DNA of 64,000 bases from Phyllobates terribilis (taxonomy: Eukaryota): NCBI RefSeq assembly GCF_046119375.1, contig NW_027362762.1, forward strand, positions 816,540,001 through 816,604,000. Reading direction: 5' to 3'. The notes under the pieces were generated by a model. It worked only from the letters and a program-made list of their open reading frames with translations, was not told the origin of the DNA and did not search any database. Position numbers and translations under genes: made by a program. This document shows positions 13,619 through 64,000 of this stretch, one piece after another (the first letter of the stretch is position 1; the number at the start of each line of letters is the position of its first letter).

Positions 13619-15149
13619 AAAAGACGCATACTATCACATTCCTATTCACTCAATTTATTGGAAGGTTTGGAGTGGTCCAGGCAAGACAGATAATGCACAT
13701 CAATTCAATATCCTCCCGTTCGGGATAACATCGGCGCCACGAATCTTCATGAAGATTATGGCAGAAGTCATGGCTTACATCAGAGGTCAGAATATTTGCA
13801 TAATACCATACCTCGACGACTTCTTCTTTATGGTCCCCTCAATAACGTTACTCCAGGAACATTTACAGACAACAACCCATATCCTAACATCTCTTGGATG
13901 GCTAGTGAACTACCAACAGTCCAACAAAGTTCCATCCACGGCAAAGACGTTCCTAGGTGTTCTACTGGATTCTCCCAGTCAGACATCCTTTTTGCCCAAG
14001 CAAAAGCAGAATCCGTTAAGATCAAGGATTGGTGTACTATGTAGCAAAATATCGATGTCTGTGAGGTTTGCTATGTCAGTCCTCGGCTCCATGACATCTT
14101 GCATCCAGACGGTAGCTTGGGCCAAAGCACACACCAGAACCCTCCAGACCCATATTCTTGCAAATTGGAATTGATTCCAAGAATCCCTGGACAATAAAAT
14201 TCCAATACCTGCCCTGGTAAAAGCCTCTCTATCCTGGTGGCTCAGCCCAAGGAACCTACACAGGCGAGTCCCCTGGATCCAGGACCCCCTGATGACAATA
14301 AAGGTATACACCAGCAAAAGAGGATGGGGAGCCATCGTCTCCCAAAACTCCTTCCAGGGACTCTGGTCAAAAAATGTCAGCCAGCAGTCTTCCAATTTCA
14401 GGGAGCTGAAGGCGGTGGATGAAGTAGTCAGATCAGCAAAATCTCTGATCCAGAATGTCGATGTAAAAATCTACTCAGACAACAAAACTATGGTCACGCA
14501 CCTATGTCATCAAGGAAGCATGAGACACAAAGGCATGAAGACTATCTCTGCAAGAATATTCTCCTGGGCCAAAGAGCATCTTCTCTCCTTATCAGCCCTC
14601 TATATAAAAGGTTCTGTCAACATCCAGGCCGATTTCCTGAGCAGGAGAGATATTAATCCGGGAGAATGGAGCCTAAATCCAGAAGTCTTTGGGATATTGA
14701 CCAGAAGGTGGGGTTGCCCAGAGGTAGATCTCTTCTGGATAGGATGCCAGAACGCAAAAGTAGCCAAGTACTTTTCCTTAAACCCAGACGATACCTGTCT
14801 AGGCGTGGACGCGTTCTCCCACCAATGGAAATTCAAACTGGCATACACCTCCCCTCCGGTTCCCATTCTACCAAGAACACGGCAAACAATAAGAACAGAG
14901 AGGGCTAGAGTAATCCTGATTGCACTATTCTGGCTGAAAAGAAACTGGTTTGGCATCTTAAGCAACCTGATTAAAGATAGTCCCCTGTTCCTTCCACCAG
15001 AGACCTCCTTCACTAAGGGCCAATTTACCATCCAGACCTCGAATTTACACCTGGATTCTGAATTCTCAATATTAAAAACCCGGGGCCTCTCAGAGTCATT
15101 AAGACCCTTCAAAAAAGCAGGAAACCTTCGTATCATGGTGTGCGCCTGA
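13619..15149 (+). pseudogene. DIRS1 RT C-terminal part, RNase H and methyltransferase-like domain
   Basis: LPFGITSAPRIFMK, PYLDDF (catalytic YxDD), QSSNFRELKAV and IYSDN (RNase H), then PEVDLF...LGVDAFSHQW..AYTSPP...VILIALFW (DIRS1 MT-like domain). Several stops and frameshifts. Confidence 0.9.
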
Positions 15150-15195
15150 ACATCCAGATCTTCGGCAACCAATCATTGCCCAAATCCTTGATTTT

Positions 15196-16050
15196 TTGCA
15201 GGATGGGCTTGAAAAAGGTCGCAAACCCAGTACCCTCAAGGTCCAGGTGGCAGCAAAAAGTTTTTATTTTGACCAGAGCCTGCCTGAATATCATTGGGTG
15301 AAGAGATTCATTACAGTAGCTTCCCATTTTCATCCTAGAATGCTCAATTTAGTCACCTCGTGGGACTTTAATATCGTCCATAAGAGGCTGACACTTCCAC
15401 CATTTGAGCCCTTATCATCAATAAAACCAGACAGACTGTTGTGGAAGAAAGCCTTAGTTGTAGCAATCACTACAGCCAGAAGGGTTAGTGAACTGCAGAC
15501 TCTCCTAATTAATGAGCCATACTTGAGAATCCTGGAAGACCGACTTATTTTTCGTCTCGACCCATCATTTCACCCTAAGGTAGTCTCAGAGTTCCACAAA
15601 TCTCAAGAGATAATTCTTCCCTCATTGTGCCAAAATCCAGCAAACAAGAGGGAGGAAGAATTCCACACTCTGGACGTAAGAAGAGTGGCCTTTCATTACC
15701 TCCAAGAAACACAGATGTGGAGGAAAGACCAAAATCTGTTTATCCAACTTCATGGCCAAAATAAGGGGAAGAAGACTTCCAAAGCTACGATTGTCATATG
15801 GATCAAAAGACCGATTACTGAAGCATACCAGATTCAGAACCTCTTGCCTCCAAAGAAATTCACGGCTCACTCCACTAGAGCAGTATCTGTCTCCTGGGTT
15901 GAGAAAGCCAGCGCTTCAATCGAGCAGGTCTACAGAGCTGCTACCTGGTCCTCGATCCATATCTTCTCCAAACATTACAGACGTAACTTAGCGTCTGTTA
16001 GAGATTTGTCCTTTGGGAGAAAAGTTCTACGGGCTATTGTCCCTCCCTAG
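15196..16050 (+). CDS. DIRS1 tyrosine recombinase (C-terminal 284 aa open)
   Basis: TARRVSELQTL (catalytic R), AHSTRAVS (HxxR) and ATWSS...FSKHYR (catalytic Y). Confidence 0.9.
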   Translation: MQDGLEKGRKPSTLKVQVAAKSFYFDQSLPEYHWVKRFITVASHFHPRMLNLVTSWDFNIVHKRLTLPPFEPLSSIKPDRLLWKKALVVAITTARRVSELQTLLINEPYLRILEDRLIFRLDPSFHPKVVSEFHKSQEIILPSLCQNPANKREEEFHTLDVRRVAFHYLQETQMWRKDQNLFIQLHGQNKGKKTSKATIVIWIKRPITEAYQIQNLLPPKKFTAHSTRAVSVSWVEKASASIEQVYRAATWSSIHIFSKHYRRNLASVRDLSFGRKVLRAIVPP

Positions 16051-24763: not shown

Positions 24764-26662
24764 CACTGCTCAAAAAATAAAGGGAACACTTAAACAACAG
24801 AATATAACTCCAAGTAAATCAAACTTCTGTGAAATCAAACTGTCCACTTAGGAAGCAACACTGATTGACAATCAATTTCACATGCTGTTGTGCAAATGGA
24901 ATAGACAAAAGATGGAAATTATTGGCAATTATCAAGACACCCTCAATAAAGGAGTGGTTCTGCCGGTGGGGACCACAGACCACATCTCAGTACCAATGCT
25001 TTCAGGCTGATGGTTTGGTCATTTTTGAATGTTGGTTGTGCTTTCACATTCGTGGTAGCATGAGACAGACTCTACAACCCACAGAAGTTGCTCAGGTAGT
25101 GCAGCTCATCCAGGATAGCACATCAATGTGAGCTGTGGCAAGAAGGTTTGCTGTGTCTGTCAGCGTAGTGTCCAGAGGCTGGAGATGCTACCAGGAGACA
25201 GGCCAGTACACCAGGAGATGTGGAGAGGGCCGTAGGAGGGCAACAACCCAGCAGCAGGACCGCAACCTCCACCTTTATGCAAGGAGGAAAGGAGAAGCAC
25301 TGCCAGAGTCCTGCAAAATGATCTCCAGCAGGCCACAAATGTGCGTGTGTCTGCACAAACTGTTAGAAACCGACTCCATGAGGGTGGAATGAGGGCCAGA
25401 CATCCACAGATGGGGGTTGTGCTCACAGCCCAACACCGTGCAGGACGTTTGGCATTTACCACAGAACACCAGGATTGTCAAAGTCGCCACTGGCACCCTG
25501 TGCTCTTCACAGATGAAACCAGGTTCACAATGAGCACGTCTGGAGATGCCGTGGAGAGCGATCTGCTGCCTGCAACATCCTTCAGCATGACCGGTTTGGC
25601 AGTGGGTCAGTAATGGTGTGGTGAGGTCTACCATTGTCCTGCATAAGGAGGAACCCAGGGCCAACCGCACCAGCATATGGTCTCACAAGGGGTCTGAGGA
25701 TCTCATCTCAGTACCTAATGACAGTCAGGCTACCTCTGGTGAGCACATGGAGGGCTGTGTGGCCCTCAAAAGAAATCCCACCCCACACCATTACTGACCC
25801 AATGCCAAACCAGTCATGTTGAAGGATGTTGCAGGCAGCAGATCGCTCTCTACGGCGACTCCAGACTGTGTCACGTCTGTCACATATGCTCAGTGTGAAC
25901 CTGCTTTTATCTATGTAGAGCACAGGGCGCCAGTGGCGACTTTGCCAATTCTGGTGTTCTGTGACAAATGCCAAGCGTCCTGCACAGTGTTGGGCTGTGA
26001 GCAAACTCCCCATCTGTGGACATCGGGCCCTCATACCACCCTCATGGAGTCGGTTTCTAACCGTTTGTGCAGACACATGAACATTTGTGGCCTGCTGGAG
26101 GTCATTTTGCAGGGCTCTGGCAGTGCTCCTCCTGTTCCTCCTTGCACAAATGTGGAGGCAGTGGTCCTGCTGCTGGGTTGTTGCCCTCCTACGGCCTTCT
26201 CCACATCTCCTGGTATACTGGCCTGTCTCCTGGTAGCGTCTCCAGCCTCTGGACACTACGCTGACAGACACAGCAAACCTTCTTTCCACAGCTCGCATTG
26301 ATGTGCTATCTTGGATGAGCTGCACTACCTGAGCAACTTCTGTGGGTTGTAGAGTCTGTCTCATGCTACCACGAGTGTGAAAACACAACCAACATTCCAA
26401 AGTGATCAAAACATCAGCCAGAAAGCATTGGTACTGAGATGTGGTCTGTGGTCCCCACCTGCAGAACCACTCCTTTATTGAGGGTATCTTGGTAATTGCC
26501 AATTTCCATCTATTGTCTATTCCATTTGCACAACAGCATGTGAAATTGATTTTCAATCAGTGTTGCTTCCTAAGTGGACAGTTTGATTTCACAGAAGTTT
26601 GATTTACTTGAAGGTATATTCTGTTGTTTCCCTTTGTGTTCCCTTTATGTTTTTGAGCAGTG
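24764..26662. mobile_element. Fold-back Tc1 derivative made of two transposase 5' halves
   Basis: TA flanks, TIR CACTGCTCAAAAA. Plus arm encodes [14 protein letters not shown]...FTDETRF; minus arm (25708-26556) encodes the same N-terminus through MQDN. Junction near 25620. Confidence 0.9.
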
Positions 26663-49950: not shown

Positions 49951-52462
49951 TGCACTGCTCAAAAAAATGAAGGGAACACTCAAATAACACATCCTAGATC
50001 TGAATGAATGAAATATTCTCTTTGAATACTTTGTCCTGTACAAAGTTGAATGTGCGGACAACAAAATCACACAAAAATCATCATTGGAAATCAAATTTAT
50101 TAACCAATGTAGGCTTGGATTTGGAGCCACCCCCAAAATTAAAGTGGAAAAACACACTACAACCTCCAGAAATCAACTTATTATATAACATTTCTATAAA
50201 TACATGATACAAAGCTTATTTCATTTGTCTAAATGTTGATATATCAAAATCACCTTACCAACTGTTACATCAGTAGTGTAATCTTTAAAACTAAAATATT
50301 GTGACTCTTGCTACTCTTAGACTAAATGGTGAAACCATCGCCCTTTATATGTAAGATTTTATATGTTTATATGGACTTTCTCATTTTTCATTTTAAATCT
50401 TTTGTAAATCAGATTTATTAATATAATGCATTACAAGAAATACAAACTTTGAGAATTAAGCAGAATATGGCATATCGCAATATAGCAATTTTATAGCTTG
50501 TTTAGAGAATGCCAATTGTAGTTAGATAACACTTAAAGATTGTAGACCATTCTAATCATTGATAACAAGTATATTCCATAATAGAATATGATAATATAAG
50601 TATAGTGATATGTAGAAGAAAAGGAGTGAATAAAAAGGAATGGGTTAAGGGAGAGAGTAAGAATGCATTGGCGAGGGGGAAGAAGGGAAGGGAGTTAGGT
50701 TTTGGGTCTCTCCTCCGGACAAGTCCGGGCCCTCAGCCCAGAGAGAAGACAAGGTCGATTGGACCAGGATGTGGTATGAATTAGTGTTCTGGTAACCAGG
50801 CAACCAAGTCTGATGTTTCCCTGAACGCAATCCAGGGGGTCCAAAGTATTATAAATCTTGTCAGAATTTCCGGCAACTTGGCCTATCAATTGCTCCATTC
50901 TATAGATGTTATTGAGTTCAGATATGAATTCAGAATGTGGTGTCGATTTTTCTTGATTCCAGTACTGGGGGATCAGATTCCTGGTAGCCATGAGAAAGTG
51001 TCTGAGCAGTCCCTTTTTAAATCTAGATATCGAAATGTCTCTTAAAGATGATAAGACTAACTCCATTGAGAGTTGGATATTGTGTATAGAGAGTTTGTTG
51101 TAGAGTTCAAATATTGGCACCCACAATTTCTTAATAGGTGGGCATGCCCACCATATATGTATGTACGAGCCTTTGTCTTCCAAAGATCTCCAGCTGGTGT
51201 CTGAACTTGTGGGGAACATAGAGTGGATGGCAGAGGGACATCTATAACACCGTGATAGGACCTTATAGCTCCTCTCCTGTGACACCGAGCATAGCGAAGA
51301 CCTGAATGTGAATAGGAGGATTTTCGATCGATCCTCGGATGATAGGGGTCCTCCCAGTTCACTCTCCCATTTTGAGAAGAACAAAGGAAAATCGTGTGTG
51401 GTTGTTTGACCTTCTTGGTATGATTTATATAATAAAGAGACGGTGTGATATGGAGGGCTCTTTATTACTCGAAGTGTTTCGAAAGGCGGAAGTGGTCTAA
51501 AGACATTGGTTTGTTTGGCCATTGCATTAATGAAGCTTTTTAGTTGTTCATGAAACCAGGAACCTGCAGGAGGTTCTTCACGAAGAAAATTTCTTGTAAT
51601 GATCTTATTCCGGTTTGATTTATGTAATCATAAATAATAGGTTGTGAGTTTTTATGTTTGTTTAAGAAGATTATTTTGTTGATGCCTGCTGTGAATGATG
51701 GGTTATCATAAACTGGAGTTAATGGACCGGATGTGGGCAATATATGAAGAGACCTATTCCTTTGTCTAAAGAATAGTTTGAGATTTTTGGTAAGGACGGG
51801 GAGGGGCTCGCCTCTTTCCTCCAGAGCTCTTGCAGACCACAGGACCGCCTGCGGGTCACGACAGGAGAGGTCCTTTTCAAAGTTAACCTATTTTTTGTTG
51901 TTTTTATTATGGATAGATCTAGTACACATGTTCCGAGTGAGGCAGAGCTATAAAGAGTGAAATTGGGTAGTCGAATTTGGATTTACTTTATAGGAAGTAA
52001 GAGAGGTGTGGTCGGTTATGGGACCATATGAATCTGCTAATCGCTTTCTTAAGTCGGGAGAAAAAGGAAGCAGGTAAATACAGTGGGATTGTTTGGAAGA
52101 AGTATAGAAGGCACGGTAGAAGGTCCATTTTTATTGCATTGACCCTTCCAAACCAAGATAGCTGTAGTTTGTGCCATTTCTCTAGATCAAGCTCAGCTTT
52201 ATTTAAAGCATTCTTGAAGTTAGCATCATACAATTGGGATGTTTTGGCGGTTATTTTAATTCCTAAATAGGTAATTGAATTAGAGCGCCATTTGAAGGGA
52301 AAGGCGGCAGCTAATTGGGTCACTAATGATGGTTGCAATGATATTTTCATTATCTCAGATTTGTGGGAGTTTATTTTAAAATTACTTAGGGAGCCAAATT
52401 TGTGTAATTCCGAAATTATATTTGGTATACTTATGATCGGGGATGTAATATATAAAAGGATA

Positions 52463-53657
52463 TGACGCACCCCCTGGGCCAGTGTTGTTTGGGGGATACC
52501 CGGAGCCGGATCAGATGGGGGTTGTAGTCTCCGAGTGGCGGTGACCCGGTCCGTGCCCAGGGTGTCAAGCTCAGTGTGAGGCAGTCCTACAGATGTTACT
52601 GGATGTTCTTTAGTGTCGACTACGCCACCCATTGATTTGCGGTCACTACGGCCGCCGCTGCAGCAGGGTCCGCTGAGGCTGGTGGTGTGTGTGCAGCTCA
52701 GGTAGTATAACCCCCAACGGGAGGGGTATAGCCTCAGGGGGTCAGTTGTAGAGGGTGGTGGTTGTGGTGGTGCAGTGAGAGTGGTAATAAGACTCCGAGT
52801 CGGGCTGTGCAGTTCAGGGTTTTACTTACTGCTTTTGTGTTGGTCACTCCGGCCTTGAGTGACCACCCGAGCCGTGCTGCGTCCACCAGGTCCTGGACTC
52901 GGCCAACCCCCAGGTGATTCTGGAGCGTGGTCCTGAGCTCCCTTTCTGACTTGTCCTTCTCTCTGGCCTTCCCCACCAGGGATCCACCTAAGTCCGGCTC
53001 CCTCGGGCCTCTTGTTGGTAAACCCTTGTCTCTGGGTTCCCTGACCCTATTCTTGGTGTGCCTTCCGGGTGGATTTAGTGGGTGGTCGTGGCAGATCCTG
53101 CCCACGACCTCCGGTCTCTGGCTAAGGATTAGGGCCCTCCACCAGCTTGGGATCCGGTACCCTTGTGCCAACTCTTCACCCTCTGGTCTAATTTTGGGTT
53201 CTTGGAGTTCCCTCTTCTCCCCCTCTGGGTCCTTCTTTCTCCTCTCTCTCTCTCTCTTGGCCTTGGAGCTGGCTGAGCTGTTCTGCTTGTCTGACCAAAC
53301 CTCTACAAAAGACCCTGTTCTAAGATGGTTCCCACCTTATATACTCCCTCTATGTGTGAGCTCAGGTGACCAGCACCCAATGAGCTCCTAGCATTACCCA
53401 GACTGCTCCCCCTATCTGCCCCTACACTACTGGGATGTTCCACCCCCCCTCCCACTCCAGCCAAGGACAGACACTATCGTACCTGCACATTTCTCTAGTG
53501 GGAGTACCATTGGTCTGTCCCCCGGAAATGGGATGTGTGTAGTGCATGCAGCCTACTGAGCTCAGTTCCACACTCCATCCTTACCCGGGAGTGGAATACC
53601 ACACCTCTGGCTTGAGGTGTAATACCCCTGTAGCAGCCGAATCCTCAGGGTGCTACA
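52463..53657 (-). repeat. 3' LTR
   Basis: Direct repeat of 56045-57239 with about half a dozen differences seen by eye. Confidence 0.97.
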
Positions 53658-53666
53658 TTCCCCCCT
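53658..53666 (-). promoter_or_regulatory. Polypurine tract
   Basis: AGGGGGGAA directly before the TGTAGC start of the 3' LTR on the minus strand. Confidence 0.85.
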
Positions 53667-54078
53667 GGTAAATCACAGCACGTCCTCGGGCTGTAAGATA
53701 TAAAAACATCCAAAACATACAATTTTTTTTCATAAACATAAACATATAAAACATCACATAAAACTTTTCATAAAAACTCTTCATAAATAACGTCCTTGTA
53801 AACACTCTTGCTCCTCCGGCCACGGTGCAACTTGTGACCGGGAAAAGCGCGACAGTCTCTTTAAGAAAAACAACAGTTTACTATAAAACCGGTAGGGGGC
53901 GCCTTAGGAAGCGCAACTATATACAAGGGGAATATGGCCGCTCTCAGTCCTCGGCCAGGTAATGGGAATAGGGACACATGGTTTAACAGTTCACTCTTGT
54001 CCCAACGGGGACTTATTTAAAGCAGCAACAGTTCACTGTACCCCGATGGGTAACTATTTACAGTCTCTTTACCGTACT

Positions 54079-55863
54079 CTAATGACGGCGTCCTCCTGCT
54101 CCTTCTTTGGATTTAGACCCGTCCGGGTCCTCCTGCTCCTCCTCACACCGCAGCTCCTCCTCCGTCAGGCGATGTACATGGAGGACGTAGGGTCCTTTGG
54201 CACACTTGTGCCGGGTGAAGGTGACCTCGTCCCCTACGTACAGGTCACGACCTCTGTGTCCCTCCGGCAGATGGCTTTCTACGTCTCTGCGTGTGACAAA
54301 GACGTCGCCGGGGGTATGATGGTCTTTTATGAAGCCCCACCCATGCTGCAGGTTGAATTTATTCACAGTCCCGGTGGTACGGGGACCATGAGCTGCACGG
54401 GGGTTCCTCCTGGTCCGGCTCTTCTGCTCCGCGCTCCTTATCTGTGCTTGCTGTTCCCGGACCCGCCTCTCTCTCCGCTCCTCCTCGAAGACCTCGAGCT
54501 GCTGGCGGCAGCACTCTGCACGCTCCGCTGCGGCCGCCCGAGTCTCCTGAGTGAACCCCATGAGGTCTCCTCCGGTGGGGTCCCACTCAAACTGTGCCTC
54601 CTCTAGCGGGGGCTGGGTCCTCCTGACGGGCTTCGGAACCGGAATCAGGGGTTCATCTAGGGGTCTTTCTTTCCGGAGTCGGGGATGGTGAAACTCCGGT
54701 GGCCATATGAAGGGCTGCCCATCCGGGCACGTATGCTGGGCGAACAGGTCCTCACCCAGGTGCGGTACTTTAGGTGTTATGGGCGCTGTGGTGGTAGCGG
54801 CGCCCGGGTTGACCAGGCCTTGCGACCAGGCTTGGGGCACGCTAAAGGAAAAGGGCACCGTAAGAACGGCGGCGCCTGTGGTTACTCGGCCCTGCGACCA
54901 GGCTGGTGGCTCCGCGGAGGTAGGGGGCGCTGTTGGAATGGCGGCGCCCGGGGGTACTAGGCCTTGCGACCAGGCTGATGGTATTTCCTGCTTTGCCGCG
55001 CTCAGGGTCGAAGCGCGTGACGTCACAGGGGTCGCGGCCACGGGTTCCGGTTGAGGCCTAGTCTGCGGCGGTGACGATGCAGCGACGGGCACGGCAGGGG
55101 GAATTTCGGGCTCTGCGACGGGGAGCTGGGGCAGGTACACGGTTTCCCGGCTCGGGGTAGAGACGTCCCCTTTACCTGCCTCCGTCCGTTCAGCTCCCTT
55201 CTCGGCGCCGTCTCCGGCCTTGAGTCCTCCTGCACCATCCTCAGAGGCGGTCTGTCTCCTCGTCTCGGGTGGCGTGCTCCGCTGATGGGTTTCGGTCCGC
55301 TGGGCCATCTCTCGGCTCCACTCCGCCAACGTCTCTCGCTGCACCCGGGCCATCCTCCGTGCGAGGCCCTCCAGCGCAGTCTGTGCACACTCCCGGTCTC
55401 GGGGGAGCTGTGCCAGGACCTCCACTAGGCCTAGTGGGGTTGTTGCTTGCAGCAGGCTCCTGACCACTGGGTCAGTGCTGCCTGACTCTCCCTCCATCTC
55501 CGGGTAGGCTCTCTCTGGACTCCTCTCCAGACTTCTTGTCTCCGGGTGCGCTCTCTCCAGACTGCTCCAGGCGACACCCATCTTTGCTCTCTTGTTCTGT
55601 CTCCGCCCACATTGAGGGTGGTCCCGGGGCCACTTTGTGATTGTCAGTTCCAGGGGCAGTTCTCTCACGCTGATGGACACTTCCAGCATCACAGTCTCTG
55701 TTGGTGGGGGCGGTTTCCGCTTTTGGCGCCATTCTTCGACCTGGCCCACGATGGGAGGTGGCCTCTTGCCACCCTCTGGCACGCCCATAATGGCGTCCGC
55801 TCTTCCAAGGCGGGAAATCTTTGGAAATGGCGGGAATCGTCTCCCAGTGGCGGGAAACTCCAT
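54079..55863 (-). CDS. LTR-element protein, 594 aa from the first ATG: low-complexity and coiled-coil regions plus a C-terminal cold-shock domain (about 54166-54375)
   Basis: Uninterrupted ORF. TGTVNKFNLQHGWGFIKDHHTPGDVFVT...LYVGDEVTF...KGPYVLHV aligns by eye with the Y-box CSD (GTVKWFN..GYGFI..EDVFVH..GETVEF..KGAEAANV). True start uncertain. Confidence 0.85.
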   Translation of the reverse strand: MEFPATGRRFPPFPKISRLGRADAIMGVPEGGKRPPPIVGQVEEWRQKRKPPPPTETVMLEVSISVRELPLELTITKWPRDHPQCGRRQNKRAKMGVAWSSLERAHPETRSLERSPERAYPEMEGESGSTDPVVRSLLQATTPLGLVEVLAQLPRDRECAQTALEGLARRMARVQRETLAEWSREMAQRTETHQRSTPPETRRQTASEDGAGGLKAGDGAEKGAERTEAGKGDVSTPSRETVYLPQLPVAEPEIPPAVPVAASSPPQTRPQPEPVAATPVTSRASTLSAAKQEIPSAWSQGLVPPGAAIPTAPPTSAEPPAWSQGRVTTGAAVLTVPFSFSVPQAWSQGLVNPGAATTTAPITPKVPHLGEDLFAQHTCPDGQPFIWPPEFHHPRLRKERPLDEPLIPVPKPVRRTQPPLEEAQFEWDPTGGDLMGFTQETRAAAAERAECCRQQLEVFEEERRERRVREQQAQIRSAEQKSRTRRNPRAAHGPRTTGTVNKFNLQHGWGFIKDHHTPGDVFVTRRDVESHLPEGHRGRDLYVGDEVTFTRHKCAKGPYVLHVHRLTEEELRCEEEQEDPDGSKSKEGAGGRRH

Positions 55864-56021
55864 GGATGGCAGGAAAAAGCTGCAAATGGCGGACAACCGG
55901 CGGGAAACGACCTGTGATGGGGTCCGTTGGCGGGGACCCTCCGGAACCGGCGGGAGACTTCTTTTTAAGGTAACGGTGAACTTTTCTTCAGGCACGCAGT
56001 ACCCGGTTGTTGCGGGCACGT

Positions 56022-56040
56022 AATCCTGCCGACTACGCCA
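56022..56040 (-). promoter_or_regulatory. Primer-binding site for tRNA-Ser
   Basis: TGGCGTAGTCGGCAGGATT, 4 nt after the 5' LTR, is complementary to the 3' end (AATCCTGCCGACTACG-CCA) of vertebrate tRNA-Ser(AGA/TGA) as recalled from known sequence. Confidence 0.9.
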
Positions 56041-56044
56041 AAGT

Positions 56045-57239
56045 TGACGCACCCCCTGGGCCAGTGTTGTTTGGGGGATACCCGGAGCCGGATCAGATGG
56101 GGGTTGTAGTCACCGAGTGGCGGTGACCCGGTCCGTGCCCAGGGTGTCAAGCTCAGTGTGAGGCAGTCCTACAGATGTTACTGGATGTTCTTTAGTGTCG
56201 ACTACGCCACCCGTTGATTTGCGGTCACTACGGCCGCCGCTGCAGCAGGGTCCGCTGAGGCTGGTGGTGTGTGTGCAGCTCAGGTAGTATAACCCCCAAC
56301 GGGAGGGGTATAGCCTCAGGGGGTCAGTTGTAGAGGGTGGTGGTTGTGGTGGTGCAGTGAGAGTGGTAATAAGACTCCGAGTCGGGCTGTGCAGTTCAGG
56401 GTTTTACTTACTGCTTTTGTGTTGGTCACTCCGGCCTTGAGTGACCACCCGAGCCGTGCTGCGTCCACCAGGTCCTGGACTCGGCCAACCCCCAGGTGAT
56501 TCTGGAGCGTGGTCCTGAGCTCCCTTTCTGACTTGTCCTTCTCTCTGGCCTTCCCCACCAGGGATCCACCTAAGTCCGGCTCCCTCGGGCCTCTTGTTGG
56601 TAAAACCCTTGTCTCTGGGTTCCCTGACCCTATTCTTGGTGTGCCTTCCGGGTGGATTTAGTGGGTGGTCGTGGCAGATCCTGCCCACGACCTCCGGTCT
56701 CTGGCTAAGGATTAGGGCCCTCCACCAGCTTGGGATCCGGTACCCTTGTGCCAACTCTTCACCCTCTGGTCTAATTTTGGGTTCTTGGAGTTCCCTCTTC
56801 TCCCCCTCTGGGTCCTTCTTTCTCCTCTCTCTCTCTCTCTTGGCCTTGGAGCTGGCTGAGCTGTTCTGCTTGTCTGACCAAACCTCTACAAAAGACCCTG
56901 TTCTAAGATGGTTCCCACCTTATATACTCCCTCTATGTGTGAGCTCAGGTGACCAGCACCCAATGAGCTCCTAGCATTACCCAGACTGCTCCCCCTATCT
57001 GCCCCTACACTACTGGGATGTTCCACCCCCCCCCCACTCCAGCCAGGGACAGACACTATCGTACCTGCACATTTCTCTAGTGGGAGTACCATTGGTCTGT
57101 CCCCCGGAAATGGGATGTGTGTAGTGCATGCAGCCTACTGAGCTCAGTTCCACACTCCATCCTTACCCGGGAGTGGAATACCACACCTCTGGCTTGAGGT
57201 GTAATACCCCTGTAGCAGCCGAATCCTCAGGGTGCTACA
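56045..57239 (-). repeat. 5' LTR
   Basis: TGTAGC...GCGTCA on the minus strand, with TATATAA at 56920-56926 and an AGTAAA poly(A)-signal variant near 56405. Confidence 0.97.
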
Positions 57240-57726
57240 GATATCATCCACAAATAATGCTAATTTATGGTCCTCCGATTGGAGCTTGACTCCCTTGATC
57301 GAGGAGTTACCACGTATTGCAGTTGCAAGGTATTCCATGGTTAGTTTGTATAGGAGGGGTGAAAGGGGGCAACCTTGCCTCGTGCCATTCCATATTGGGA
57401 ACGGGCTTGAAATGGAACCATTAACTTTAACTTGAGCAATAGGAGAGGTTTATACTGCAGTTATTCTACGGAGCATATTCCCCTGCAGTCCACTTCCCTT
57501 GAAAGCTTAAAATATGAGTTCCCAGTGTACCCTGTCAAACACTTTTTCTGCTTCAATCAACAAGATACACATGGGATCCCCCCCCAGCTCCATCTATCAA
57601 CAAAATTGTCCTTATGGTGTTGTCTCTCGCCTCACGTCCCGGGATGAATCTCACCTGGTCCTGATTTATCAGTCTTGGGAGAAGAGGACACAATCTTTTT
57701 GCGATCATTTTTGCATACATTTTTGA

Positions 57727-59547: not shown

Positions 59548-61221
59548 CACTGTGTGCAGAATTATTAGGCAAGTTGTATTTTAGAGGATTATTTTTATTA
59601 TTGATCAACAACTATGTTCTCAATCAACCCAAAAGACTAATAAATATCCAAGCTTAATATTTTTGGAAGTTGGAGTGGGATTTTTTAGATTTGGCTATCT
59701 TAGGAGGATATCTGTTTGTGCAGGTAACTATTACTGTGCAGAATTATTAGGCAACTGAACAAAAACAAAATATAATCCCATCTCACTTGTTTATTTTCAC
59801 CAGGTAAACCAATATCAGTGCACAAAATTTAGAAATAAACATTTCTGACATGCAAAAGCAAAAACCAAAAAAATTAGTGATCAGTATAGCCACCTTTCTT
59901 TATGGTGACACTCAACAGCCTTCCATCCATAGATTCTGTCAGTTGCTTGATCTGTTTTCGATCAACATTGCGTGCAGCAGCCACCACAGCCTCCCAGACA
60001 CTGTTCCGAGAGGTGTACTGTTTTCCCTCCCTGCAGATCTCACATTTTATGATGGACCACAGGTTCTCTATGGGGTTCAGATCAGGTGAACAAGGGGGCC
60101 ATGTCATTATTTTTTCTTCTTTTAGACCTTTACTGGCCAGCCACGCTGTGGAGTAGTTGGATGCATGTGATGGAGCATTGTCCTGCATGAAAATCATGGC
60201 TGGACAGACATCTGTCTAAGATGATTTAGTGAATCCTGCCTTGAGCAGGGGGTTGGACCAGATGACCCAGGAGGTCCTTTCCAACTCTACCATTCTATGA
60301 TTCTATGATTCATGGTTTTCTTGAATGATACCAACTTCTTCCTGTACCACTGCTTGAAGAAGTTGTCTTCTAGAAACTGGCAGTAGGTCTGGGAGTTGAG
60401 CTTCTTTCCATCCTCAACCCGAAAAGGTCCCACAAGTTTATCTTTGATGATACCAGCCCATACCAGTACCCCACCTCCACCTTGCTGGCATCTGAGTCGG
60501 AGTGGAGCTCTCTGCCCTTTATTGATCCAGCCTCTGGCACATCCATCTGGCCTGTCAAGAGTCACTCTCATTTCATCAGTCCATAAAACCTTTGAAAAAT
60601 CAGTCTTAAGATATTTCTTGGCCCATTCTTGACGTTTTATCTTATGTTTCTTGTTCAAAGGTGGTCGTTTTTCAGCCTTCCTTACCTTGGCCATGTCCCT
60701 GAGTATCGCACACCTTGTGCTTTTTGATACTCCAGTAACGTTGCAGCTCTGAAATATGGCAAAACTGGTGGCGAATGGCATCTTGGCAGCTTCACGCTTG
60801 ATTTTCCTCAATTCATGGGCAGTAATTTTGCGCCTTTTTTGGCCAACACCCTTCTTGCGACCCTGTTGGCTATTTGCCATGAAATGCTTGATTGTTCGGT
60901 GATCGCTTCAAAAGTTTGGAAATTACAAGACTGCTGCATCCCTCTGCTAGACATCTCACAATTTTGGACTTTTCAGATCCCGTCAAATCTCTCTTCTGAC
61001 CCATTTTGCCAAAGGAAAGGAAGTTGCCTAATAATTAAGCACACCATATATAGGGTGTTGATGTCATTAGTCAACACCCCTCCTCATTACAGAGATGCAC
61101 ATCACCAGATTTACTTAATTGGAAGTTGGCTCTCAAGCCTATGCAGCTTGGAGTAGGACAACATGTATAAAAAGTATATGTGATCAAAATTCTCATTTGC
61201 CTAATAATTCTGCACACAGTG
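59548..61221 (-). mobile_element. Tc1-superfamily DD37E (TRT-like) element, decayed
   Basis: TA flanks, TIR CACTGTGTGCAGAATTATTAGGCAA. WTDEM...MQDNAP...PDLNPIE with 37 residues between the second D and E. Confidence 0.9.
60200..60311 (+). mobile_element. CR1 LINE 3' end fragment inserted in the DD37E transposase
   Basis: GGGTTGGACCAGATGACC..GAGGTCCTTTCCAACTC followed by the (ATTCTATG)n tail; TCATGG duplicated at the flanks. Confidence 0.85.
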
Positions 61222-61244: not shown

Positions 61245-64000
61245 GTCATACTCTTCATTCAATCCGTTGGGGGATAGGATATTTTAATTTGTGGATCCAC
61301 AATGCCTTTCTCTTAAGGAGAGCTTTTTTAATATAACCCCATCTCCTGGAGTAAGTTACTTCTGCAATCACCTGATATTTTAGTTGTGCAATTGTGTGAT
61401 TATTATCCTTGAAGTGTTGTGGAAGAGGCAGTAACATATGTCCATATCAAATTTTCGATTTTTGTCTATTGAAACGAGTGTCCACTTGCTGCATTGTCTC
61501 CCCAACTTAAATGTATCCGCAAGGACAGATAATTAAATAGATTACATTACTGGACATACATGTAAAATATCCATATAGGACTGTCCCGTCCGTGGGTGGG
61601 TAAAAGTTTCTCCTCTAGTCACATTGCCACATTGTGCGCAGTTCAGACAGGGATATGTTCCATTCCTTTCAGCCGATATAAAAGTCTGTTTTGATATCTT
61701 GATTTCATTACCCATATCTCCACGGACTAATTTGTTTTTATTGTTGGGTAACCTCTTATTAGAAATCAATGGAAAGTCTTTAAACTCAAGTATATCTGTG
61801 TAGGCTGGATGTAAGGTATGCCAGTGTTTGCTTATTAATTGATCAACTTTCAGGTTGGTGGGTGATATTCTCTGACAAAGGGGATTCTCATTTGGTTTTC
61901 TCCCAAATGTTTAATTATCTCTCATGAGTCTCTCCCAGCTTTATTTAACAAATGTAAGGGATAACCCCTCTTCAAAAAATTGGTCTTCATTTCTATCAAT
62001 CTATCCTCACACACAGATGGTTCTGATACAATTCTCCTAATTCTCTTGAACGATGATTTACGAATCGCTCTTTTTAGCGTATAGGCATGTGCACTTTCAA
62101 AATGTAAGATACTATTTTTGTCTGTATCCTTCCTAAAAAGACCAATGTCAAAGACTCCTCTTGTGTTTTTAATTAACATAGTATCCAGAAAATTAATTTC
62201 CTGGAAACTGTGTGACATTGTAAATTTAACTTCAGGCCAAATACTGTTCATGACATCAAAAAAGGTTAGAAGCGACTCGAGTGGCCCCTCCCATACGCAA
62301 ATGATATCCTCAATAAATCTGTACCATGTTCTAACATGGTTGTGAAATAACATATGATCAAAGAAAAATTCATTTTCAAAGAAAGCCATGTATGCATTTG
62401 CGTATGGGGGGGGGGGCACATTCGCTTCCATTGCCGAACCCCTCTTCTGGCTATAATATCTGTCCTGGAAGAGAAAATAGTTTTCATTTAAGTCCGATTT
62501 CACACTTCCGTATATCTCCGGTACTGGAAATACCGTTACCGTAGATATCCGTGTCCCGTGTGCCTGTGTGTTTTACGTGTTGCATTTGCATCAGGATCAT
62601 GCGGACGGTGCCTGGGAATTAGCGCTACAGGTTGAGCTGTTCATAAGCGCTGGTGCTGAACACTGCACTCATCATGGTTCCCTGCCGGCGCTGCGATCAG
62701 CTCCAACAGGGACTCTGATGAGGGTAGTGGTAGTCAACTCCCGATGTCCCCACCTGTTAAAATAAGAATAAAATAATAAAATCCATGTACTCACCTCTCC
62801 TAGGTGTCCCCCGCTGTAATCTATGTGACCGCTGCTGCCTGGGAGAATGAGCCACTCCGGAGCTGCGCTCAGTGAGTGACAGGACACCGCTCCTAAGCTG
62901 TAGCTCCGGAGCCACTCATTATCCCCGGCTCCTAAGCAGCAGCGGTCGCCTGGATTACTGCAGAGACACCAAGGAGAGGTGAGTATATGGATTTTATTAT
63001 TTTATTTTTATTTTAACAATGGGGACATCGGGAGCAGACTACCGCTACCCTCATCATGGTCCCTGCTGGTGCTGATGGCAGTGCCGACAGGGAACAATGA
63101 TGAAAGCAACGTTCAGCACTGGCACTTGGGAACAGCGCCATTCCCAGACGCTGGATGCCACACGGCTGACACACGGATGTCATCCGTGTGGTACGTTTTG
63201 CGGACCATGTATCTGCAAAAAAAAATGTACTTGTCTCCGCGTGGAGCACACGGACACATGGTCCGTGAAAACACACTGAGATGTTCACAGAACCATTCAT
63301 TTCAATGGGTCTGTGTATGTCAATGTCTCCGGAATGTGTGGAAGCTGTCACCACTTGTACAGGAGATACTGACGTGTGAAAGAGGCATAAAACCAATGTG
63401 AGAAGATCCATAACCAGATCAAGTTTGCGATTGTGGGAAGCTGTTCTGGTTTAGTATCCAGTTCAATGCCTCAAGTCCTTTTGAATGTTCTATTGAGGTG
63501 TAAAGACTCGCTACATCTATAGTAACCAAGATGGTGCTCAGAGTGATGTTATCAATACATTTCATTTTATTCCAAAATATTTAGATTTAAGAGACCTCAG
63601 TGGTTCATACCTTTAATTCAAGAAATTGTTGGTATCTAACAAAAAAAGCTCTTGTTTTTTAATCAAAGGTGCTAGAATTTTCTCTAGGGTTATTGATAGT
63701 GGCAATAATACGGAATTAGTCAATGCCACTATCGGTCTCCCCAGTGGATCTATGAGGGTTTTATATACCTTTGGTACTATATAAAACAAAGGTGTGAGAG
63801 GATCGTCTTTTATTGAATATCGAGCCAGTTTGTCATCAATGGTTCTCAAATATTTATGTTTCTCTATTATTATAGAAATTTTCTTTTGTATATCTGCAAG
63901 TGGATTATGATTTAGGGGGACATATGTATCTATATCTGACAATTGTCTTAAAATTTCTTTTTAATACTGTGATCGGTCTATTATAACAATCGGTCTATTA
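61245..64000 (-). mobile_element. Penelope-like element (RT plus GIY-YIG), decayed, runs off the window
   Basis: FYIVPKVYK...GRPIV, LVTIDVASLYTSI, NYFLFQDRYYSQKRGSAM, WYRFIEDII and INFLD motifs; YPCLNCAQC and VIYLIICPCG...VGET (GIY-YIG). Confidence 0.92.
62492..63386. mobile_element. T2/Kolobok-like MITE inserted in the Penelope RT
   Basis: TTAA-GTCCGATTTCACAC left end and GTGTGAAAGAGGCA right end, internal inverted arms. Confidence 0.7.

Follow-up and report, generated by a model that had tools for sequence, protein, structure and literature searches.

The zebrafish elements Bik-1 and Bik-2 (bhikhari, crestin) and the chicken element ENS-1/ERNI are young, non-autonomous long terminal repeat (LTR) elements with one long open reading frame (ORF) that obtain Pol from a partner (PMC12067270; here and below, papers are cited for the sections drawn on). 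The Xenopus elements 1a11/xretpos(L) are likewise frog LTR elements without pol that have a single ORF, and they are expressed in embryos (PMC4585706). Moreover, 46 endogenous retroviruses (ERVs) of birds carry PF00313, the Pfam cold-shock domain (CSD), through several independent captures (He et al., 2025; PMC12287698). Here, we describe an element on the minus strand of a 64,000-nucleotide stretch of the Phyllobates terribilis genome (contig NW_027362762.1, positions 816,540,001 to 816,604,000; the whole stretch is called the window). It is, near certainly, a non-autonomous Ty3/Gypsy-type LTR retrotransposon, and a CSD is its only recognisable domain. Its features are listed below in window positions; omega is the ratio of nonsynonymous to synonymous divergence (dN/dS), estimated by codon maximum likelihood (ML).

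57239 to 52463, minus strand: whole element, defined by its LTR pair, primer-binding site (PBS), polypurine tract (PPT) and target-site duplication (TSD)
57240..57243, no strand: TSD GATA, right copy (single GATA at four empty paralogous sites)
56045..57239, minus strand: 5' LTR, 1,195 bp (LTR comparison)
56924-56920, minus strand: TATAA in the 5' LTR, putative promoter
56408-56403, minus strand: AGTAAA in the 5' LTR, putative poly(A) signal
55840..56364, minus strand: LTR 3' end (inferred unique 5' region, U5), PBS and leader of about 200 nt, a block common to gag-pol elements at 68-72%
56022..56040, minus strand: PBS, 19 nt, tRNA-Ser(AGA) (match to genomic tRNA genes)
54079..55863, minus strand: single ORF, 594 aa (P0001)
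55279..55395, minus strand: predicted N-terminal helix, aa 157-195 (region 130-200, omega 0.33), without Pfam or capsid match
54781..54976, minus strand: three in-frame repeats with 72-nt spacing, within a Pro/Ala-rich linker predicted to be disordered
54394..54633, minus strand: conserved motif and charged helix of about 48 residues before the CSD, aa 411-490, omega 0.13 (model, codon ML)
54175..54375, minus strand: CSD, aa 497-563, five-strand barrel, omega 0.14 (Pfam, model, codon ML)
53667..54078, minus strand: 3' untranslated interior, partly A-rich (sequence reading)
53658..53666, minus strand: PPT, G-rich, adjoining the 3' LTR (a similar G-run precedes the 3' LTRs of the candidate helper)
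52463..53657, minus strand: 3' LTR, 1,195 bp (LTR comparison)
52459..52462, no strand: TSD GATA, left copy (single GATA at four empty paralogous sites)

The original prediction, made from the letters of the sequence, had described LTRs about 99.5% identical with TG/CA ends, a GATA TSD, a 19-nt tRNA-Ser PBS and a PPT, and all of these signals were recovered. The LTRs run from TG to CA and are 99.6% identical (three substitutions and two one-base gaps in 1,196 columns), and the PBS is the complement of the 3' end, CCA included, of genomic tRNA-Ser(AGA) genes. The insertion region is segmentally duplicated, and its right flank is matched at 100% at seven places in the same genome. The insertion is present in three of these seven duplicates, and it therefore dates between duplication events. 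The other four were fetched and found empty; the TSD is proven because all four carry a single GATA. Four contig-only runs, none of them recorded as RNA, span the element. An empty-site contig seen in run X1 was rejected as an allelic polymorphism, since empty paralogues are present in the assembly. The window itself lies in a multi-copy segmental duplication (C2:815.6-818.3 Mb), and the insertion target was a decayed reverse transcriptase (RT) gene of a long interspersed nuclear element (LINE; RVT_1 E 0.019, under the Pfam cut-off). At a rate of 2.5e-9 (bioRxiv 2023.11.06.565769), the copy is about 0.5 million years (My) old. A second, 11-nt copy of the 5' end of the PBS was also found inside each LTR (56209-56199 and 52627-52617, minus strand). 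It sits 140-170 nt before the LTR end in 25 of 30 junction loci, of both CSD and gag type, and it is possibly a second tRNA contact.

The interior had been described as filled by one intact ORF and as lacking gag and pol. The ORF is indeed single and intact, but it spans 75% of the 2,387-bp interior and not all of it. The lack of gag and pol held. We found no second Pfam family at E≤1 besides the CSD and no Gag Pfam match in the ORF protein, and no CCHC, D[ST]G or YxDD motif in the element; neither the Gag capsid nor the protease, RT, RNase H and integrase (PR-RT-RH-IN) of an autonomous Ty3/Gypsy element was seen. The AlphaFold2 (AF2) model of residues 26-594 is mostly of low confidence, with helices at about residues 157-195 and 439-486. 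No capsid fold was present in this model, whose N-terminal part is mostly of low confidence, and for that reason a decayed Gag remnant is possible there. The true start codon appears uncertain; M1 is limited to the closest subfamilies, M26 (55788) occurs in several, and codons 26-94 are near-neutral. An overlapping frame of 86 residues (55732-55472, minus strand), which starts with MAPK in a good Kozak context, recurs in other subfamilies. In L054/L071 it is in frame with the CSD, and thus the N-terminal frame is not fixed.

The CSD itself, placed in the C-terminus by the same prediction, was confirmed. Pfam matches residues 497-563 (E 1.1e-7; 32.1 bits against a cut-off of 27), and a match at E≤0.05 was obtained in 15 of 15 aligned family members. 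The AF2 model of the region (mean predicted local distance difference test score, pLDDT, 85) is a five-strand oligonucleotide-binding (OB) barrel, and its top Foldseek matches are all CSDs, with a root-mean-square deviation of about 2 Å. The assignment to the Y-box type held in part. The family profile scores 52 bits with YBX1/2, 45 with CspA, 25 with CARHSP1, 24 with LIN28 and 21 with CSDE1, and the long beta3-beta4 loop of YBX1/2 aligns to it with a one-residue gap. However, the equivalents of W65 and H87 are replaced, and the near-invariant Y-box CSD (W65, F74, F85, H87) followed by a long charged C-terminal tail was not found; identity to YBX1 is about 30%, and Foldseek places bacterial Csps first by a narrow margin. 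The equivalents of F74 and F85 are each retained in 21 of 22 family rows, and 19 of the 22 have W in place of Y72. With two of the four RNA-stacking residues replaced, the RNA-contact surface is, by alignment, remodelled, and binding of single-stranded nucleic acid is plausible.

A host Y-box gene is the likely donor, judging from the profile scores, but the tree does not establish it. In a 45-row CSD tree the 22 family rows cluster (90/86, unstarred), and no intact YBX row is in the tree; the search for a host YBX in the same genome gave one decayed YBX-like locus (L051), which fell below the inclusion score. CSDE1 was rejected as a donor, as the top PF00313 loci (L031-L038), which we take to be a CSDE1-like retrocopy and exons, score at most 13 bits against the family profile. 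L031-L036 (C1:734.44 Mb) are fragmented, intronless retrocopies, presumably CSDE1-like, split by LINE-like sequence. A query of the ESM Atlas returned generic CSD clusters alone, under 0.9.

That the family keeps the frame open had also been proposed, and the codon comparisons agree. In pairwise counts between subfamilies, the CSD has dN of at most 0.10 at dS 0.4-1.4 (closer pairs), and synonymous diversity surrounds the fixed CSD motif. By codon ML on nine copies, omega is 0.14 for the CSD (2dlnL, twice the log-likelihood difference, of 166 against omega = 1) and 0.13 for residues 411-490 (2dlnL 173); it is 0.33 for residues 130-200 and 0.51 for residues 201-410, and at 0.82 for residues 26-94 (eight copies) it does not differ from 1. 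As judged from these rates, the CSD and the preceding helix are under strong purifying selection between subfamilies. LTR elements often carry host fragments, and bird ERV CSDs occur at varied positions (PMC12287698), so that the CSD might be a functionless transduced host fragment, open because the copies are young. We find this hardly credible in view of an omega of 0.14 at dS 0.4-1.4, of the synonymous diversity around a fixed motif and of a second, shorter family with another PBS that keeps little besides the CSD.

Of 30 copies of the young subfamily, 6 are already broken, and the singleton omega is 0.72 (19 intact copies, after removal of the 6 broken copies and of 5 with duplicated flanks). 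Low omega between subfamilies together with decay within them places the selection on transposing lineages, not on inserted copies. We argue from this that transposition, and not the host, is what the protein probably serves. Conversely, many copies could jointly supply a protein used by the frog germ line or embryo, a host-beneficial addiction or co-option. Young, pol-less, one-ORF LTR families are required for zebrafish development (PMC12067270), and 24 of the 30 young copies are intact, which would suit such a role. Inserted copies decay near-neutrally, however, the constraint falling on branches between transposing subfamilies, and no fixed orthologous locus was identified, no cross-species search for one having been made; we consider co-option very unlikely.

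An autonomous partner sharing LTR and PBS had been anticipated. We used the LTR-PBS junction as a pattern in the own genome (G000, a 10.57-Gb assembly) and located a family of gag-pol elements (L165-L200 set) with a PNMA-type Gag that has a CCHC knuckle and a PR-RT-RH-IN Pol. The LTR pairs are 94-99.9% identical in the six of six elements examined, and no CSD motif was found in the reading frames of the elements examined. The window element shares with them one block (nt ~876-1400, 68-72%) comprising the LTR 3' end, the PBS and about 200 nt of leader, which may hold the priming, integration and packaging signals. The first 100 PBS junctions on C1 lead to a gag motif in 35 cases and to a CSD motif in 38, to both in none and to neither in 27. 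Helper Gag and Pol gave no tblastn match to the window element better than E 0.82, and derivation of the ORF from helper gag/pol was rejected (best tblastn E 0.14 and 0.82). The gag-pol family is thus the likely helper on sequence grounds, and the shared signals suggest that its proteins mobilise the element in trans.

Other candidates for the helper were rejected. The 18 loci of Gmr1/SCAN elements have no shared PBS and no LTR match of their own; SCAN-element LTR pairs carry another PBS, and in those loci that do contain LTR matches, these stem from repeats that are nested or flanking. The Gmr1 clade has integrase before RT and a SCAN Gag, and the partner that we found has RT before integrase. 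None of the top 30 PNMA-scoring loci has the shared PBS or LTR in the 3.5 kb examined. An autonomous element bearing a CSD was also rejected: when 100 gag motifs were set against 83 CSD positions, a single one had a CSD motif at 6 kb or less, and this lone neighbour is a CSD element with 99.9% identical LTRs, nested in pol. Two gag-only elements of SCAN/Gmr1 type (L121 and L128; interior 1.7 kb, LTRs 99-100%) belong to a separate non-autonomous group.

CSDs are RNA chaperones, the ORF occupies the gag position and the long conserved helices could dock on Gag. The protein might then be a structural co-component of the helper particle: packaged along with Gag, it would be an adaptor for Gag or a nucleocapsid-like chaperone, and would assist strand transfer or the annealing of the tRNA. 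The nucleocapsid substitute of the original prediction is unlikely as stated, since the helper Gag already contains a CCHC knuckle and the protein lacks a capsid fold. The protein also has no protease-like motif, and CSD-less gag-pol copies with 94-99.9% identical LTRs move without encoding such a component, making this reading in its broader form a distinctly improbable one.

The description of a recently mobile, non-autonomous family stood, that of a single young family did not. In a DNA search of the same genome, the 40 scored of 7,625 candidates were all 99-100% identical. Thirty fetched close copies (L001-L030) all have LTR pairs, which differ by 1-10 substitutions, and 28 have an exact 4-bp TSD, the others having one of 5 bp and one with a mismatch; the 594-aa frame is intact in 24. 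Their ages are 0.2-1.7 My, in a set biased to close, young copies. At their target sites, TG-NNNN-CA-like sequence with an AT-rich core is frequent, which may point to an integrase preference. Exact patterns, whose counts take in tandem and duplicated copies but not diverged ones, gave 46,495 matches for the LTR-end/PBS junction (control 0), 25,211 for the CSD codon motif (control 1) and 35,105 for the helper gag motif (control 0). At 3.6-4.8 kb for each of the 25,211 matches, a rough inference puts the family at about 90-120 Mb, near 1% of the assembly, duplicates included. Copies arranged in tandem, head to tail, at intervals of one LTR plus interior (3.4-3.8 kb), occur commonly (C3:108075781/108079364, C81:5594396-5601556, L073, L134).

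Among 18 further CSD loci, for each of which 10 kb was taken, there are 13 LTR elements that share the Ser PBS (in one of them degenerate); their LTRs resemble that of the window at 68-91%, and no RT motif lies between the two LTRs of a pair. Two of the remaining five have another PBS, one resembles the second family and yielded no LTR pair, one has LTRs and no matched PBS, and one is the decayed YBX-like locus. By sequence comparison, then, the family is a multi-subfamily group and not one young burst. The second CSD family (L072:2699-6483, L062, L070) has a different PBS, presumably tRNA-Ser(CGA)-like; L072 has a 1.4-kb interior, and the CSD stands at the very start of its ATG-started ORF. 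Far more diverged is an intronless CSD ORF (L063:3727-4623, minus strand, the same as L041), 39% identical to that of the window, which keeps the histidine of ribonucleoprotein motif 2 (RNP2) and has no LTR pair in 5.5 kb; a search with the L041 ORF gave no database homologue.

In protein databases, true homologues come from frogs alone (Ranitomeya variabilis, R. imitator, Anomaloglossus baeobatrachus and Phyllobates terribilis, three dendrobatoid genera). The Phyllobates entries may come from the assembly studied here, and we do not treat them as independent; for the other species the evidence consists of protein records. Annotation usually masks the ORFs of repeats, so that their absence in other taxa carries little weight. 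Rows of other species are interspersed among own-genome subfamilies in the 45-row tree, which fits a capture older than these three genera, or horizontal spread. Dinoflagellate multi-CSD proteins, which fill the phmmer list, were rejected as relatives since they score via repeated domains. Three database gene models (P0157, P0158 and P0159) fuse the element CSD to unrelated R3H, transposase-like and MIF4G domains, identified by Pfam accession, and are either annotation chimeras or cases of exonisation.

How could such a protein serve transposition? In the model that we prefer, and to which we give even chances, it is an RNA-level accessory factor that confers a quantitative, non-essential advantage. 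The element RNA would be primed by tRNA-Ser and packaged, reverse-transcribed and integrated by the helper Gag-Pol. The protein, a flexible linker, a long helix and a remodelled CSD probably taken from a host Y-box gene, would bind RNA and favour the RNA that encodes it, or family RNA, in the germ line. RNA stabilised or masked in this way would gain better access to helper particles. The analogy is with host YB-1, which reportedly stabilises the genomic RNA of human immunodeficiency virus (HIV) and murine leukaemia virus (MLV; PMC6040738), and Gypsy RNA is reportedly abundant in poison-frog ova (PMC6278860).

Several observations weigh against this model. The RNA contact residues of YB-1 include W65 and H87 (PMC7498358), and W65 is absent in 22 of 22 family rows and H87 retained in 1 of 22. 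Most of the copies behind the omega estimates are top Pfam-CSD scorers, a bias toward conservation, though residues 411-490, with omega 0.13, lie outside the Pfam domain. Variation of dS along the ORF points to recombination between subfamilies. The leader of the window copy has no ATG in 1,031 nt (0 of 1,000 shuffles as low), but most of eight other copies have several upstream ATGs, and we rejected the ATG-free leader as a general proof of translation. Finally, three of 30 unbiased junction loci have deletions at short repeats that remove the CSD, and one deletion junction, read directly at one locus (L172), has 318 genome matches (at most two mismatches) on many chromosomes. Either CSD-less copies transpose, or intact RNA gives rise to them again and again through template switching, and the CSD may not be strictly needed in cis. 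It is because of these junctions that a quantitative RNA-level advantage is the best model.

The same derivatives can be taken as free-riders on a shared good, as would be expected if the protein acted in trans as a counter-defence or host modulator, blunting or competing with host RNA silencing or Y-box masking in germ-line cells and lifting the activity of the whole group of helper and satellites. Purifying selection on the ORF is equally expected then, and a remodelled RNA surface next to an equally conserved non-CSD helix suits a protein partner. A benefit that is purely shared should, however, be eroded by ORF-less free-riders, yet CSD motifs stand at 38 against 35 gag motifs per 100 junctions, and the ORF persists in deeply diverged subfamilies. 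On balance we think this somewhat unlikely.

We tentatively propose, with more doubt than confidence, a satellite-like class of LTR elements. Its only gene would be a captured, remodelled Y-box cold-shock protein that acts, within the germ line of the frog, on its own RNA (selfish masking or helper routing), kept since before the dendrobatoid genera split, in at least two primer-tRNA families, and amounting to about 1% of a giant genome.

The window holds other repeat remnants at 14175-16050 (plus strand), 25708-26556, 60287-60907 and 61922-62572 (all minus strand). From their translations we take these to be a DIRS-like RNase H with tyrosine recombinase, two Tc1-like transposases and a Penelope-like RT.

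Full-text literature searches, which left Dfam, Repbase and most subscription papers outside, gave no description of a CSD-only non-autonomous LTR element; the family may have a catalogue entry as an LTR repeat that lacks annotation. The word "cold" is absent from a paper on frog LTR elements (PMC4131045), and in the main text of the D. tinctorius preprint (bioRxiv 2023.11.06.565769) it occurs in a reference only.

Within the genome, the PNMA-type Ty3/Gypsy elements are the closest relatives in their signals, with the same tRNA-Ser PBS, LTR 3' end, leader, PPT type and 4-bp TSD; they encode Gag-CCHC and PR-RT-RH-IN and no CSD, and their unique 3' (U3) and repeat (R) regions and coding interior are unrelated to the frog element. 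YBX1/YBX2 (FRGY2) are the best solved-structure sequence match of the family profile, and they too have a Pro/Ala-rich region before the CSD. The CSD of the element differs in being C-terminal, with a tail of about 30 residues and W65 and H87 replaced, and in being intronless and mobile. The bird ERVs are, like the frog element, retroelements with PF00313, but they are retroviruses with RT. Two of their CSD rows (PMC12287698 supplement) match Pfam at E 1e-25 to 1e-23, near host sequence, and the cited sections of that account hold no selection test, pol-less family or helper pairing, whereas the frog CSD appears selected and is present in tens of thousands of copies. The ORF of Bik-1/Bik-2 and ENS-1 is a Gag with capsid structure, in ERVs with 196-393 insertions (PMC12067270), and the frog partner is Ty3/Gypsy. 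For 1a11, the protein has been called Gag-like, the copies of its ORF number in the tens, and no CSD is mentioned in the sections cited (PMC4585706). In this gag-only class (Bik-1, 1a11, ENS-1) the single ORF is Gag, which we did not find in the frog element. CSD capture and single-ORF, pol-less LTR elements were thus already known, and the CSD-only, Ty3/Gypsy-dependent variant appears to be new. It would add a further retroelement lineage to convergent CSD capture, and it offers a testable handle on the Gypsy-rich genomes of poison frogs. It implies an undescribed step at which a retrotransposon parasite gains an edge, most plausibly in the way its RNA is stabilised, masked or packaged in the oocyte: the other non-autonomous LTR elements with a single ORF that we compared keep Gag, and the frog family drops Gag and Pol and keeps a host-type RNA-binding protein.

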